Below the pieces are notes generated by a model. That model saw nothing but the letters and a program-made list of their open reading frames with translations, was not told where the DNA came from and ran no database searches. This document shows positions 2,138 through 64,000 of a stretch of 64,000 nt of DNA, piece by piece (positions within the stretch are counted from its first letter, which is position 1; every line of letters starts with the position of its first letter). The position numbers and the translations under genes are program-made. This stretch comes from Minisyncoccota bacterium (lineage in GTDB: Bacteria > Patescibacteriota > Minisyncoccia > Phycocordibacterales > SW-6-46-9). The stretch is taken from the NCBI GenBank assembly GCA_040905385.1, contig JBBDRP010000002.1, positions 226,292 through 290,291 of the forward strand, written 5' to 3'.

Positions 2138-5100
2138 TTGTACTATGAATGGCACATGGACGATCAACTGAATTTTGAAAATCAAACCCTTATCACCACG
2201 AACCTGGCGGCAGAGTTGACCGGGTACTCCTCAGACTACATTGGTCAGCTGGCTCGTGATGGTGGTGTTGCCTCGAAGAAAATTGCTGGTCGACGTTTTG
2301 TTGATCGCGATGAGCTGATTGCATATGCTGATGAGAATAAGAAAAGTTTTTCAATTGCTCAATTGCCTGCAGAGCATCGTCCTATATCTGACGAACCAGA
2401 ACCTGTCGAGTCATCGGCAGAGTCAAGCTCTGCACCGGAGGAAACAATAGCGACTGATGAGCAAGCGGACAACGTTGATCAGTCTGTTCCGGAAACTCCT
2501 GCGCCTGATAGTCTGAAAACGCTAGACGATGAGAATTCTGGACTGACCGTCTCTACCGATGAGATCTCTCAAAATAGAGCGTCATCACGATGGCGACTGA
2601 CGCGTGATAAGCACCGCTCGGGTGGTGGCGAGGTTGCGAAGACCTCGGTTTCTCGTTTGCCAGCGATTGCTATGTCACTGATGCTCGTTGCTTCAATTGG
2701 GATTATGTCCTTTGGCATGATTGGTTCGGGCTCTGCATCTGACGCTGGCCAGCATCGAACCTCGGACGATACTCAGTCGGTTGACCAAATAGCTGCATCA
2801 GTCGAGGCTGGATTGCTCGATACATCGGTTCGTTCAGCTGATGCTAAAGAGAAAAGCATTCTAACCTCATCGGTTGACGCGATGTCCTACTCGGTCAAGC
2901 TAGCAGCTGCCGCAGCCGGCACATCACTGAACACGTACGTTTTCCGTCCAGTCCGTAATCTTCTTTCCGATACAATCTACACCGGACTGGCCGGAATACT
3001 GAGGTTTGGTGAAGTCTTCCTCCCTGACTACTTTGGTGATTACTCAGCCGAGTTTGTGCTGAATGATGACGGTGATATTGAGATTGATCGTCAGCGAGCT
3101 GATGAGCAGATGGTGGCAATTACTCGTATCCAGAATCGAAGTCTCAGTGATCGGGTAATCATTACCGCTCTTACGCAGTTGACTGGAGTGACGGCACAGC
3201 TGGCCGAACGTATCGAGGATCCTGAAGCGACTGGTGGTGTCGCCTCACGTGATTTTGTACGTGACCGTATTGATCAGTTGCGGGACATTATGCATGGCAA
3301 CCTAGACTCCTTAATGGATGCTGTTGAGTACGATCACCCGAATGATATCGAGTTGACGACGGCGGATATTGGTACGACCACTTCCGGGGTTCTTGAGGTT
3401 ACCGGACAGACAACATTATCGCAGACACTCATAAACGGTCCGCTTTCGGTAATTGCACCAAACAGCACAAGTTCTAATACGTTGTTTGTGGATACAGCCA
3501 GTGGTCGTGTCGGTATTAATACTGATACACCGCAGTACACGTTGGATGTGAACGGCACCTTTAGAGCTGATTCATTTATCTCTAACTCCACCACTACGGC
3601 GGTTAACTTTACGGCCTCTTCGACTGACACGAATACTCTAACAGCCGACACTGCTACCATCACTGTTCTAACTGTTGGTGATCTTACCGCCACCAGCTCG
3701 GCTGATCTAGCCACGACAACCATTACAGATTTGTCGGCCTCTTCGACCGACACAGATTCGTTGACTGCTGATGATGTAGTAATTACTAATTCCACGACCA
3801 CTAATTCATACATTCAGCAGCTACTTGCTGATAATTCTACGACTACGAATGCGTACGTGACTTCTTTGGTAGCATCATCATCTAACCTCACCAGTGCCCA
3901 GATCGAGGATCTGATTGCCACCAACTCGACAACGACTAATTCTTACATTCAGAATCTCTTGAACGATAATACCACCACAACCAACGCCTACATCACCAAC
4001 CTGATTGCGGAGGACATCACAGTCACTAATGCAACAACGACTAATTCTTACATCCAGCAATTACTAGCCGATAATTCTACGACTACGAATGCGTACGTTA
4101 CCTCACTAGTGGCATCATCATCTGATCTCACCAGTGCCCAGATTGAGGACTTAATCGCGACGAACTCCACTACAACCAACGCCTACATCCAGAAACTTTT
4201 GGTTGATAACTCAACCACTACGAACGCCTTTATTACCTCTCTGGTAGCGGATAACCTGACGGCAACTAGCGGCACCATCACAAATCTCGTAGCTACAGAT
4301 TCGACCACAACCAATGCCTACATCACGAATCTGCTGGCTGACAATTCGACTTCGTCGAATCTTTATTCATCTTCGCTCATTGCAGGCAGTGGAGACATCA
4401 CTGACTTCACCGCTGAGAACGCAACGATTACAAACGCCACCACCACCAACTTCTTTGCGACCCTGGCCAACTTCACCACCGCCTTCTTTGATAACCTCAC
4501 GGCCACCATCGCCGACATTACTAATCTAGAGGTGGACAATGCAACAACGACGAACTTGGTGGCAGTACAGTCCACCACAACCGACGCGTATATTCAGAAT
4601 CTTCTGGCTGACCAGTCGACAACCACAAACTTGACCGTTACAGGCGACACCATACTCGGCAACACAGCATTGGATACGTTGACGGTTAATGCCACTGTTG
4701 AGACCGACCTGGTGCCAAACTCTAACGCTACACTGAATCTCGGTTCTCCATCCTTCTACTGGAACATTGCGTATCTGGATACGATTAATGCCAACAACAT
4801 ATCTGCGGCCTCGACCTCTATCTCTGGAACGCAGGCAGAAAGCTTTACGCTTAATACTGATAATAGTACGCAGGATGGTGAAGATTCAGAGCTAATTTTC
4901 TACCGCGGTCAGGTAACACCGAATGCGGTGATTCAATGGGATTCGGTAGCAGATCGCTTTGATTTCAATCAGTCTCTATATATAAACAATGAATCAGCGT
5001 CGACAACCAATCCGACCTTGGTGGCTGAAGGGGTGATTGGGCAGACGGCTGATCTTTTCCAGCTGGCTTCATCGTCTGGCGACACACTTTTCTCGGTTGG

Positions 5101-46071: not shown

Positions 46072-46347
46072 TTAGGAGCAGCAAAATGACTGTACGAAAA
46101 AAAGATCGTACAAGCCACCAACAAGAGCAATTATAAAAAGGCCAATCAATCCCCATTTGGCGTACTTGCCGTATCTGCTTTTATCCTTGTCAGTAAAAAT
46201 TTTTGTATAGAGGTATGAACCGAAGCCAAACAGTGTCATGCAGATTCCCACAAATGCGAGCAGCGGTTGTAGCTGATAAACGCTTGATATCAGGACAATA
46301 ATCGCAAAAGAGATAATCCCTAATACTGTACGAGTGGTTTGTGTCAT
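46072..46347 (-). CDS. Small hypothetical membrane protein (91 aa, 3 predicted TM helices)
   Basis: ORF with hydrophobic segments only. Confidence 0.45.
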   Translation of the reverse strand: MTQTTRTVLGIISFAIIVLISSVYQLQPLLAFVGICMTLFGFGSYLYTKIFTDKDKSRYGKYAKWGLIGLFIIALVGGLYDLFFVQSFCCS

Positions 46348-46452
46348 GTATATATACTACTATCCACCAAGGTCAGAAATCACTACATAGGTCTAACCTC
46401 TGTAAATTTCCCAGAGTCTTTCATGTGGGCGTGATATACTATATTCATACTA

Positions 46453-50380: not shown

Positions 50381-50471
50381 ATTTAATAAAATGAAAACTT
50401 TAGGTATACTGACAGCATACGTAGCATTCATAGAGGGGTGACAGAGTGGATGAAAAAAATATTATTACAGC

Positions 50472-50557
50472 GGAGGGATGACAGAGCGGTCGATTGTGCA
50501 CGCTTGGAAAGCGTGTGTGCGTTCTTCGCACCGCGGGTTCGAATCCCGCTCCCTCCG
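50472..50557 (+). tRNA. tRNA-Ser (anticodon GGA), class II with long variable arm
   Basis: Acceptor GGAGGGA/TCCCTCC + G, 3-bp D-stem, anticodon loop TTGGAAA, variable hairpin GTGCG-TTCT-CGCAC, T-arm GCGGG-TTCGAAT-CCCGC. Confidence 0.9.
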
Positions 50558-50577
50558 CTGTGGTTGTATTTTTTCGC
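50541..50577 (+). repeat. Direct repeat copy 1: last 17 nt of tRNA-Ser + 20 nt trailer (GAATCCCGCTCCCTCCGCTGTGGTTGTATTTTTTCGC)
   Basis: Identical sequence (with one extra T) at 50691-50728. Confidence 0.85.
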
Positions 50578-50690
50578 GCTCTCTGCAGAATTTGAACGAG
50601 TTGGATTTTTAAGGAGAAAAGAAAGCGCATTTCTGCGCTTTCGTGAGGCGTGGTGACGGAAATTTTGAGTCAGCAAAATTATCTGTGACC

Positions 50691-50728
50691 GAATCCCGCT
50701 CCCTCCGCTGTGGTTGTATTTTTTTCGC
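50691..50728 (+). repeat. Direct repeat copy 2 of the tRNA-Ser 3' end + trailer (att-like scar)
   Basis: See 50541-50577. 113 bp separate the copies. Confidence 0.85.
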
Positions 50729-50799
50729 CCCCCTCAGTATTGAATAACCAACAAGTACTTCGTGTGTTTGTTGGTGGTTAAATAGGTATAATTATAAAT

Positions 50800-57834: not shown

Positions 57835-58161
57835 TTGATTTATACACAATCAAATGTTATAATTATCATTGGTGATTGCGTAGTCGCCCCCCACCACTTT
57901 GTGCATTACGTTTACGTTTTAAAAAGTCAGAAGGATAAAAAGCTCTACATTGGAGTGACGGAAGATCTTAAACGACGTTTTGCTGAGCATCAAAATGGAG
58001 AAAATCGCTCAACGAAACATCGTCGTCCGTTTACACTTGTTTACTACGAAGCATTTAGAGCCAAAGTAGATGCTCATGAAAGAGAGCGGAAGCTAAAACA
58101 GTTTAAGAATTCGTATAAACATCTAAAGGATCGTATTGGTAAATGTATTGATAGTGCATAA
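57835..58161 (+). CDS. GIY-YIG nuclease superfamily protein (YhbQ/UPF0213-like); alternative GTG start near 57900
   Basis: VHYVYVLKSQKDKKLYIGVTEDLKRRFAEHQNG...RRPFTLVYYEAF GIY-YIG core. Confidence 0.75.
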   Translation: MIYTQSNVIIIIGDCVVAPHHFVHYVYVLKSQKDKKLYIGVTEDLKRRFAEHQNGENRSTKHRRPFTLVYYEAFRAKVDAHERERKLKQFKNSYKHLKDRIGKCIDSA

Positions 58162-58495
58162 AGTGGTGGGGGGAGGAAAGTCCGAACACACCCTGATTTT
58201 TTAATCTGGAGCACGTAGCGGGTAACTCCCGTCAGTCGTAAGACTGTGGTGCGAACAGTGACGCTGAAATTTGAAAGGGTTTCAGCATCCCCCACTTTTA
58301 AAGGTAGCGGATGAACTTGGTGGCAACACTAAGGTGAAACGGCTAAATCTGTACGTGTGTGCAAGGCCGTATTCCAGCCTCCGGGCTGGTCTGAGCCGCT
58401 TGAGTACAGTGGTAACACTGTACCTAGACAAATGACTACAACGGAACTTATGTAACGTAGGTTTCTAAACAGAATTCGGCTTACGGATCACCAAA
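58162..58495 (+). ncRNA. rnpB: RNase P RNA (bacterial type). The 5' boundary is uncertain and may overlap the end of the GIY-YIG ORF.
   Basis: P4 5' strand GGAGGAAAGUCCGAAC (58172-58187) and 3' strand ACAGAAUUCGGCUUACGG (58469-58486), with a compensatory CCGAA/UUCGG change relative to the E. coli CCGGG/CCCGG. Spacing ~290 nt as in E. coli. Short P1 UGGUG/CACCA. Confidence 0.6.
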
Positions 58496-62769: not shown

Positions 62770-63015
62770 ATGAAAAAAGTTACCATTTACTCTACACCGA
62801 CATGCCAGTACTGCGAGGCGGCAAAAGAATACATGAAGGAGCACGAGATTGATTACAAAGATTACGATGTATCTTCCGACACCGACCGACGCAAGGAGAT
62901 GATTGAGAAGTCAGGACAGATGGGCGTTCCGGTTATCGTCATTGGTGAGGAGATGATGGTTGGATTTGAGCAGGACAAGTTTGAGGAGTTACTGGCGTCA
63001 CAAAGCGAAGAATAA
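62770..63015 (+). CDS. Glutaredoxin-like protein (NrdH/YruB-like thioredoxin fold)
   Basis: VTIYSTPTCQYCEAAKEYM...GVPVIVIG CxxC motif. Confidence 0.8.
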   Translation: MKKVTIYSTPTCQYCEAAKEYMKEHEIDYKDYDVSSDTDRRKEMIEKSGQMGVPVIVIGEEMMVGFEQDKFEELLASQSEE

Positions 63016-63043
63016 CTCGTACCCCTGTTTTGCTTCGGCACGA

Positions 63044-63070
63044 AAAGACGCCCAGCGGGCGTCTTTTCTC
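63044..63070 (+). terminator. Rho-independent terminator
   Basis: AAGACGCC-CAGC-GGGCGTCTT-TTCT. Confidence 0.7.
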
Positions 63071-63217
63071 ATATCTCAGCCTCGCTCCTCCGACACATGT
63101 CGGAGACCATGCTCGCTTGGCTTACGAAGTCCGAACAAAACAGAGTACTCGCTTTATAGTTTCCTACACAAACTACGAATGCGTATAGACTTTTGAAGGG
63201 ACGTGCTGTATTTATTG

Positions 63218-63290
63218 TCTCTCTGCCAGGAGTCGAACCTGAATTTGGTCCTTAGGAGGGACCCGTTCTATCCAGTTGAACTACAGAGAG
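63218..63290 (-). tRNA. tRNA-Arg (anticodon CCT)
   Basis: Reverse complement folds as CTCTCTG-TA-GTTC-AACTGGATA-GAAC-G-GGTCC-CTCCTAA-GGACC-AAAT-TCAGG-TTCGACT-CCTGG-CAGAGAG-A. Confidence 0.85.
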
Positions 63291-63328
63291 ATATCGGCAT
63301 AATAGCATTTTAGCCACAAGATGTACGA

Positions 63329-63622
63329 ATGGTCTATTTTTGCTATACTAGGTCTATGGAAAATAAGGACTTTAAAAATATGGAGCAGAATATGGAACGC
63401 AAGCTTCGCGAGACCAGAGAGCTGGCTGAACGCAACAACGAAATACTGCAAAAGCTGTACCGTTCGATGATGTGGAGCAGAGTTATGTGGGTTCTGTACT
63501 TAGTGATTATTATCGGTATAGCAATCGGAGCCTTTTACTTTCTGGAGCCGTACTGGGACACGGTTATGGAGGCGTATGACAGTGTCCGTGGTCAGATTCA
63601 GTTCTCAACTCCACAGGGATAG
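63329..63622 (+). CDS. Small hypothetical membrane protein; likely start at the internal ATG 63356 (MENKDFK...)
   Basis: Coiled N-terminus plus one TM helix. No homology recognised. Confidence 0.4.
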   Translation: MVYFCYTRSMENKDFKNMEQNMERKLRETRELAERNNEILQKLYRSMMWSRVMWVLYLVIIIGIAIGAFYFLEPYWDTVMEAYDSVRGQIQFSTPQG

Positions 63623-63740
63623 TCTATAATTGTTTTTGTGCTTTTCTTCAATACGTTAAGCACTGCTTGGCGTATTGACTGAGATTACATTGAAAAAATA
63701 ATCTCAGATGGGTATATTAAAGTAGATCCGTAACAATACG

Positions 63741-63850
63741 CTGGAGTAGCTCAGGGGATAAAACAGCATCTGCTTGCTGTTTTATCCGATCTACCTGCAG
63801 GGTAGAATCGCGTATGTTCCGCCTTTGCGGAACCAGCGATAGGAGGAAGA
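63741..63850 (+). other. tRNA-like element. The first 20 nt are identical to the 5' end of tRNA-Phe (ACGCTGGAGTAGCTCAGGGG), fused to a perfect 13-bp-stem hairpin (GGATAAAACAGCA-TCTGCT-TGCTGTTTTATCC), two further stem-loops and a CCAGCG segment complementary to the 5' end.
   Basis: Read directly. Does not fold as a canonical tRNA (no D-stem partner). Confidence 0.35.
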
Positions 63851-63920
63851 GCTTGCTCTAGCCCTGTGGAATAAAAAGAATTAGTTTCGTTTCATTGTTT
63901 TGTGGGTTATATTAGTACAT

Positions 63921-63992
63921 ACGCTGGAGTAGCTCAGGGGTAGAGCACCTGTTTGAAGCACAGGGTGTCGTCGGTTCGATTCCGGCCTCCAG
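63921..63992 (+). tRNA. tRNA-Phe (anticodon GAA)
   Basis: GCTGGAG-TA-GCTC-AGGGGTA-GAGC-A-CCTGT-TTGAAGC-ACAGG-GTGTC-GTCGG-TTCGATT-CCGGC-CTCCAGC-A. Confidence 0.9.
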
Positions 63993-64000
63993 CACAAACG

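Follow-up and report, generated by a model that had tools for sequence, protein, structure and literature searches.

Why does a second copy of the beginning of a tRNA-Phe gene, running on into a row of stable hairpins, lie shortly upstream of the intact gene in a Minisyncoccota bacterium? The locus is found near the end of the 64,000-nt stretch of DNA analysed here (contig JBBDRP010000002.1 of assembly GCA_040905385.1, positions 226,292 to 290,291 of the forward strand), which is referred to as the window throughout. The original prediction had described the upstream copy as a tRNA-like element and had offered recurrent tRNA-targeting insertions or a tRNA-derived small-RNA family as explanations. 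Our analysis favours the former: with a probability of roughly 0.6 the element is not an RNA gene of its own but an insertion/duplication scar in the D-loop region of tRNA-Phe, where GIY-YIG cassettes have inserted before. Four observations carry this conclusion, namely the direct repeat of the tRNA start, the empty sites in related genomes, the remnant of a GIY-YIG open reading frame (ORF) ahead of the repeat, and a family-wide layout in which such ORFs precede tRNA genes and are accompanied by 5' tRNA fragments, here called stubs.

The duplicated tRNA-Phe start and the DNA behind it

The core of the element is an exact 22-nt direct repeat, ATACGCTGGAGTAGCTCAGGGG, which a repeat search places on the plus strand, as are the other features of the element described below, at 63736-63757 and 63919-63940 with a spacing of 183 nt. 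It is composed of a 4-nt leader, ATAC, and nucleotides 1-18 of tRNA-Phe. The 20-mer that was first reported to be shared by the two sites is thus real, its positions having been 2-5 nt off (it starts at 63738 and 63921, not at 63741 and 63919). The downstream copy provides the leader and the start of the real gene, an intact tRNA-Phe(GAA) at 63923-63995 that is called by ARAGORN, scores 66.3 bits with the Rfam tRNA model and is 100% identical to the gene in two relatives (L058 and L045); it is uninterrupted, and Rfam detects no intron in it, be it with the gathering threshold or with E <= 10. The upstream copy (stub proper, 63740-63757, by direct reading) is an orphaned 5' stub. ARAGORN makes no call there, 63923-63995 being the only tRNA called, and a scan of 63600-64000 against Rfam gives no match within 63736-63842, whether the gathering threshold or E <= 10 is applied; neither tmRNA nor the tRNA clan CL00001 nor any other Rfam family matches the upstream copy even at the latter value. 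The view that it is a partial duplication, confined to the 5' part, close to the intact gene and not itself a canonical tRNA is therefore borne out. Since the element sequence is identical in an independent assembly (contig L034 of the Logan assembly of SRR27977661), it is not an assembly artefact of the window.

The duplication extends beyond the 22 nt. The sequence TGGGTATATTAAAGTA (63709-63724) recurs as a degenerate second copy of the -10/leader region, TGGGTTATATTAGTA, at 63903-63917; the local alignment of the two scores 19 as compared to 11.5 +/- 2.3 for shuffled sequences (p ~0.01), a value reached by 20 of 2000 shuffles and by 15 of 3150 window segments. From these sequences we propose that the duplicated unit originally comprised about 40-50 nt, that is, the -10 region, the leader and tRNA nucleotides 1-18.

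Between the repeat copies lies an insert of 161 nt (63758-63918), designated X. The perfect 13-bp hairpin, the two further stem-loops and the complementarity of the two ends that had been predicted are all present. Hairpin 1 (63756-63787; fold and repeat search) pairs GGATAAAACAGCA at 63756-63768 with TGCTGTTTTATCC at 63775-63787 across a 6-nt loop, and its left arm starts in the last two G of the stub. It is followed in the fold by hairpin 2 (GATCTACC / GGTAGAATC with one bulge, 63788-63809) and hairpin 3 (GTTCCGC CTTT GCGGAAC, a 7-bp stem with a CUUU loop, 63816-63833). Directly 3' of the latter, CAGCG (63834-63838) pairs with CGCUG at 63739-63743, and in the modelled structure this 5-bp closing helix and the 7-bp hairpin 3 could stack coaxially. 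The fold of the 104-nt stretch is strong (-47.7 kcal/mol, z = -5.96, with none of 200 shuffles as stable). The opposite strand folds comparably (z = -5.92) and the stems contain no G-U pairs, which indicates palindromic DNA and is not evidence for an RNA on one particular strand. An inverted repeat search further found, at 63854-63866 within X, an inverted copy (12/13 nt) of the tRNA-Phe D-arm segment 63935-63947.

Apart from these features X is devoid of recognizable content. Beyond the copied 18 nt and the 5-bp closing helix the likeness of the element to a tRNA is nil, with no T-loop, no anticodon-like loop and no D-arm. The sole ORF that lies wholly within X is one of 22 aa, and no protein-family remnant, be it of an integrase or of a GIY-YIG nuclease, is detected there by tblastn. 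The motif CCGAC-N-GTCGG, whose relevance will become apparent below, is absent from 63600-64000, its 2 matches in the whole window being at chance level. A blastn comparison of X with the window and with all fetched loci (word size 7) gives chance-level matches only; blastn at a sensitivity for distant matches finds no match in phage and plasmid collections, and neither the stub plus hairpin block (searched in viral and metagenome contigs as an 18-nt tRNA start, 60-90 nt and CCAGCG) nor the exact hairpin patterns (searched in viral contigs) were found. On the explanation that we favour, the stub is thus a dead fragment of the tRNA 5' end, and X is non-conserved palindromic DNA.

Empty sites, a GIY-YIG gene remnant and its probable promoter

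The genome is a Paceibacterota-like one of the Candidate Phyla Radiation (CPR, or Patescibacteria), and the genes around the element are arranged in the order MurJ, LepA, DivIC-like, glutaredoxin (Grx), tRNA-Arg(CCT, minus strand), a small membrane ORF of 88 aa (63356-63622) and tRNA-Phe. Homologues of this small ORF were used to reach syntenic contigs in several lineages. Synteny based on LepA in the genome collection gave two close relatives only, look-ups of the exact small-ORF protein, for two alternative start codons, gave no match, and a glutaredoxin look-up returned one contig, which ends short of the locus. L001, L058, L055/56 and L035-L054 share the gene order, and their tRNA-Phe is located 10-50 nt past the small ORF, with neither stub nor X. 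In all, six related CPR lineages show this empty site, and therefore the approximately 300 nt that separate the small ORF from tRNA-Phe in the window are lineage-specific. The comparison with the tRNA-Phe locus of relatives that had been suggested as a check thus went against a conserved element, which is missing from every syntenic relative examined. The idea of a tRNA-derived small-RNA family is not supported for the same reason, for the lack of covariation to analyse and of any homologue in the window, the fetched loci and the collections searched, and for the strand symmetry of the fold.

The relative that bears most directly on the locus is L057, whose small ORF is 71% identical to that of the window. 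At the same site it carries a tRNA-Phe 5' stub followed by an 86-aa GIY-YIG ORF, 6 nt and an intact tRNA-Phe. Its stub is laid out as GCTTGGGTAGC, a 58-nt GC-rich double hairpin and CTCAGGGGTA. L055, in which the tRNA and the spacer are the same, is the empty-site counterpart. The encoded protein consists of the GIY-YIG catalytic domain only (Pfam PF01541), and its closest relatives of solved structure are the UPF0213 proteins BH0048 and EF2693, followed by I-TevI and SLX1.

The window retains the decayed 3' end of such a gene, its last ~35 codons, at 63647-63733, as identified by tblastn and DNA alignment. The remnant corresponds approximately to residues 51-86 of the L057-type protein and reads FNTLSTAWRID*, then, after a gap of 8 codons relative to L057, DYIEKIISDGYIKVDP and a TAA stop. 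Family proteins detect it in the window by tblastn at E = 2e-5 to 1e-3, and its DNA matches the end of the L057 ORF in 47 of 53 nt, a score reached by none of 300 shuffles. An earlier assignment of 63647-63680 to the start of the ORF was ruled out by tblastn, which identifies this segment as the TLSEARKVE region (residues 51-61). The stop codon precedes the stub by 6 nt, which is the usual ORF-to-tRNA junction of the family, and it follows that the stub once began a complete tRNA-Phe behind a GIY-YIG cassette. The remnant is thus a relic of an older cassette that was once located directly ahead of tRNA-Phe. No GIY-YIG ORF or remnant is present between the stub and the real tRNA.

A promoter scan finds a σ70-like promoter, TTGAAA-17 nt-TATATT, at 63690-63718 (10/12 matches), which is one of three 10/12 promoter-like matches in 63000-64000 and whose hexamers overlap the conserved ORF codons I-E-K ... 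D-G-Y-I-K. The overlap is a property of the family: in 61 family ORFs the end codons match the σ70 consensus at 8.97 of 12 positions, as compared to 8.31 +/- 0.11 after synonymous codon resampling (0 of 2000 resamplings reach 8.97), and the -10 element usually ends 7-25 nt ahead of the tRNA. The degenerate downstream leader copy at 63903-63917 has a -10 element and no -35 element, and a search of 63000-64000 for terminator-like sites gave none. Judging from these sequences, the promoter at 63690-63718 probably drives the stub, X and tRNA-Phe, and by the same token the cassette appears to supply a promoter for the very tRNA that it displaces. Such a role would account for the survival of the ORF end where the remainder of the gene has decayed. 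Because the sole good promoter is upstream of the stub and a terminator is lacking, the stub and X are likely transcribed together with tRNA-Phe; most likely they form a structured 5' leader of ~180 nt in pre-tRNA-Phe that would be removed by RNase P. When the whole precursor is folded, the 3' acceptor strand of the tRNA can pair either with its true 5' strand or with the stub, and the two compete. It may be speculated from the models that the CGCUG/CAGCG helix and hairpin 1 limit this mispairing.

Is the arrangement in L057 an isolated case? An alignment of homologues of the L057 protein was used to retrieve 80 metagenome loci (L059-L138, which together with L057 are referred to as the family). 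A same-strand tRNA gene begins within 160 nt downstream of the ORF in 75 of the 80, with a median gap of 14 nt, and four of the five remaining loci are cut by a contig end. Nine isotypes are represented among the downstream tRNAs (Arg, Thr, Val, Ile, Phe, Lys, Met, Asn and Ala). The start of this tRNA (its first 11 nt, with at most 1 mismatch) recurs as a 5' stub 20-150 nt before the ATG in 32 of 63 non-redundant loci and in 0 of 59 control regions. Hairpins of the form CCGAC...GTCGG are found in the upstream region of 77 of the 81 family loci; typically there are two, which split the stub within the D-arm and are followed by the continuation of the D-loop sequence and then by the ORF. Their two outer base pairs covary (CC/GG, TC/GA, AG/CT, CT/AG) around an invariant core, the strand-specific G-U signal is ambiguous (9 C-A pairs versus 6 G-T or T-G pairs), and Rfam holds no family for them. 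The canonical cassette consists of a 5' tRNA stub, the CCGAC/GTCGG double hairpin, an ORF of ~86 aa (MAWVYIL...DYIEKxIxDGYIK) and an intact same-strand tRNA. Variants resembling the window occur: L063 has tandem cassettes, the leader is duplicated in L063 and L136, and L129 and L130 show the stub-hairpin-tRNA layout without an ORF. In L086/L087 and also in L090, L091, L109, L123 and L138, extra CCCGAC-loop-GTCGGG modules are nested in the loops of the double hairpin, which suggests that the hairpin unit itself multiplies. A literature search in the incomplete library that was available turned up no account of GIY-YIG cassettes that combine 5' tRNA stubs with CCGAC hairpins, and the architecture is likely novel.

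Set against the canonical cassette, the window has the 5' stub ahead of the insert (63740-63757), lacks the CCGAC...GTCGG double hairpin, in place of which there are three unrelated hairpins, and has its ORF remnant ending before the stub, not between the stub and the real tRNA. X gives no significant alignment with the L057 cassette, with the upstream ORF remnant or with the inserts, described below, that lie 3' of tRNA-Phe and tRNA-Ser. For this reason a derivation of the left arm of hairpin 1 from the 5' untranslated region and ATG region of the cassette, which we had considered, was dropped. We also rejected a miniature inverted-repeat transposable element with terminal inverted repeats at 63610-63622 and 63858-63870 (12/13 nt): its left arm belongs to the small ORF, of which it is the native and conserved C-terminus, chance alone is estimated to give some 0.3 inverted repeats this good per 1 kb, and the multiple copies that would be expected of such an element are not seen, there being no others within the window.

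How the scar may have arisen

The order of events, the transcription of the region and the origin of X are matters that we infer. We suggest that an ancestor carried a small GIY-YIG cassette directly ahead of tRNA-Phe, as L057 does today. The ORF would then have decayed, leaving its last ~35 codons (63647-63733) together with the promoter TTGAAA-17-TATATT contained in them. A second event, at tRNA position ~18/19, would have duplicated ~40-50 nt and placed ~145-160 nt of hairpin-rich DNA between the duplicated copies. The downstream copy together with the untouched rest of the gene would thereby have given the working tRNA-Phe, with the upstream copy remaining as a dead stub. As for X, it could by analogy with L129 and L130 be an ORF-less derivative of another cassette, or it could be filler from fold-back repair of a break in the D-loop.

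Several points weigh against this scenario. X has no similarity to any GIY-YIG cassette and lacks the CCGAC/GTCGG double hairpin, so that it is tied to the cassette family by position and context only. A fold with z ~ -6, a perfect 13-bp stem and a helix that closes on the stub exceed the order to be expected of random filler, and selection could be involved. The GIY-YIG proteins of the family comprise the catalytic domain only and are of the UPF0213 type, and none of these family proteins is a known homing enzyme. Finally, X is present in one strain only, and its gain can therefore not be timed.

A more far-reaching reading takes the stub and X as a whole for an ORF-less relic of an undescribed class of selfish CPR cassettes, which we regard as a possible, though doubtful, account. 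Cassettes of this kind, found at no fewer than nine tRNA isotypes in the 80 metagenome loci, would invade tRNA genes at the D-arm, turn the native 5' part into a dead stub and bring along a replacement 5' tRNA part as well as a promoter in the last codons of the nuclease gene. The hairpins of X, like those of the canonical cassette, would then be functional; they might be a binding site of the nuclease, or they might act as a lock against mispairing of the stub with the real tRNA in the precursor.

It appears rather unlikely that the locus records a purely local accident, in which slippage or break repair duplicated ~45 nt and fold-back templated synthesis made the palindromes, with no mobile element taking part. 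Much of what was described above would suit such an event: the perfect palindrome begins where the stub meets X, its first bases being the final two G of the stub, X holds the inverted 12/13 copy of the adjacent D-arm and matches nothing elsewhere, and the leader was duplicated as well. However, the break falls in the region where GIY-YIG cassettes split tRNA genes in dozens of genomes, and the tRNA-Ser stub in the same window ends at the same tRNA position. The shared break region and this second stub make a nuclease-driven break more likely than a random one. It should be added that such an accident overlaps with the scar at the tRNA-Phe D-loop that we favour, and differs from it only in denying a role of an element.

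Slightly less probable still is that the repeat is the attachment (att) pair of an integrase-driven element (a prophage, an integrative and conjugative element or an integrative and mobilizable element) that has mostly been deleted, so that the 161 nt would be a remnant between attL and attR, like a cis-mobilizable element. Integrase att cores reportedly (the account is that of Williams in 2002) are located at the 3' end or in one of two loops, the anticodon loop and the T-loop, with the 3' part of the tRNA being regenerated. Partial tRNA duplications around inserted DNA, with attL/attR repeats and the involvement of integrases, are well known and are the classic signature of such integration (Reiter 1989; Williams 2002; reviewed in PMC9897764). 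In line with this, the 22-nt repeat of a tRNA segment flanks DNA that is absent from relatives, tRNA genes are recurrent insertion hot spots in both cases, the 3' side of tRNA-Phe and tRNA-Ser in relatives and in this strain shows short inserts of this sort between 3' tRNA repeats, and L050 and L051 have larger, differing insertions past the second copy. The window differs in that it is the 5' end which has been duplicated (the leader and nucleotides 1-18, and with them a degenerate -10 region), not a 3' part, in that no integrase gene or remnant lies between the repeats, and in that the sole gene at this site in a relative, L057, is the 260-nt ORF of an 86-aa GIY-YIG nuclease, with nothing else beside it. 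The att explanation thus suits the 3'-side inserts better than this 5' one.

That the stub and X form a functional tRNA-like small RNA, in which the 5-bp acceptor-like helix stacked on the 7-bp hairpin 3 gives a 12-bp minihelix that is recognized by RNase P or another tRNA-binding enzyme and acts as a decoy, as a regulator or is a mere processed product, is the least probable explanation and one to which we give very little credence: the strong fold, the way hairpin 3 leads straight into the closing helix in the manner of a T-stem and acceptor stem, the upstream promoter and a 5' end shared with a real RNase P substrate all speak for it, but the element escapes ARAGORN and every Rfam model at E <= 10, lacks T-loop, anticodon-like loop and D-arm, is missing from all syntenic relatives and all collections searched, folds equally well on the opposite strand without G-U pairs, and has no terminator.

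Known systems and further insertions in stable-RNA genes

Three other systems invite comparison. Phage T4 SegB is a free-standing GIY-YIG homing endonuclease that is associated with tRNA genes (PMC2330249). The likeness to the CPR cassettes consists in a small GIY-YIG gene among or beside tRNA genes, in a presence/absence polymorphism between close relatives and in a spread that would be driven by nuclease cutting and repair, the mechanism we infer. SegB possesses a DNA-binding region in addition to its catalytic domain. The CPR proteins, in contrast, comprise the catalytic domain only, have UPF0213 proteins BH0048/EF2693 as nearest solved structures, and are nucleases by prediction. SegB is not known to be accompanied by tRNA stubs.

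Closer in phylogenetic terms are the non-intron insertions encoding GIY-YIG proteins that Tsurumaki et al. (2024) described in CPR rRNA genes (PMC11270868). They occur in the same phylum, belong to neither group I nor group II introns and place GIY-YIG ORFs in the stem-loops of stable-RNA genes. A tRNA, however, is too small to tolerate an insert, and in the cassettes it is the duplicated 5' part that restores the gene; moreover, the tRNA cassette appears to bring its own promoter. Group I introns, which are known from tRNA genes of Patescibacteria (PMC13011429), are likewise selfish elements at tRNA genes of the same phylum. Unlike the element studied here they are located in the anticodon loop, are spliced and involve no duplication, whereas the tRNA of the window is uninterrupted.

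The element of the window is most likely a strain-specific scar, and its annotation as a tRNA or small-RNA gene would be unwarranted. At the same time it is a degenerate and atypical instance of a widespread, regular pattern in the CPR/Patescibacteria, in which a catalytic-domain-only GIY-YIG gene lies immediately 5' of a tRNA gene, the copy of the tRNA 5' end ahead of it is split by the conserved double hairpin, and the end of the ORF appears to double as the promoter of the tRNA. Should the cassettes be mobile, they would target tRNA genes from the 5' side, as a mirror image of integrase att sites, and would account for many of the 5' tRNA fragments in CPR genomes, and the habit of CPR selfish elements to reside in stable-RNA genes would extend from rRNA to tRNA and, in the window, to RNase P RNA. 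The layout also offers a testable case of a coding sequence shaped by an overlapping promoter.

The RNase P RNA in question is of class A and spans 57869-58494, with a complete 86-aa GIY-YIG ORF nested in the loop of its P3 hairpin. P1 is formed by 57869-57876 and 58487-58494 and P3 by 57887-57897 and 58163-58173; the ORF, which runs from a GTG at 57901 to a TAA at 58159-58161, nearly fills the 265-nt loop. When GAAA is put in place of the ORF, the folded RNA contains both P1 and P3. Rfam scores it at 68 bits (E = 1.8e-20), below the gathering score of 100, which is why it is missed at the default threshold. A weak match to a GIY-YIG-like peptide, HVYILLSTKVRNHYIGLTS, at 46345-46401 (E = 0.2-0.6) is possibly another decayed gene of this kind.

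The idea of recurrent tRNA-targeting insertions is supported by a second tRNA gene of the window and by inserts on both sides of tRNA-Phe. tRNA-Ser(GGA), at 50472-50558, has fragments on either side (50432-50737 in all): a 3' partial repeat at ~50690-50737, past an insert of ~130 nt, and, at a distance of only 22 nt from the start of the gene, a 5' stub (50432-50449, 15 of 18 nt matching) which has the same D-loop end as the tRNA-Phe stub. By eye, the right end of the tRNA-Ser 3' insert, AAATTTTGAGTCAGCAAAATTATCTGTGAC and then CGAATCC, resembles that of the tRNA-Phe 3' insert in L034 (~1056-1090). The 3' side of tRNA-Phe is an insertion hot spot as well (L034, 929-1215; L035-L054, ~3368-3600; L055, 3229-3830; L058, 775-932), with inserts of 110-290 nt between repeats of the tRNA 3' end and a conserved segment, TTTTCCCGTGGAGGAAAGCAGCGA. 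L055/56 have a different GIY-YIG ORF between the 3' repeats, another one begins in L058, and L050 and L051 have their larger insertions past the second 3' repeat. Just past the window end, L034 contains a 491-aa ORF (1285-2760) with no Pfam match between the tRNA-Phe locus and an HSP20 gene; in L035-L054 HSP20 follows directly after the tRNA-Phe region.

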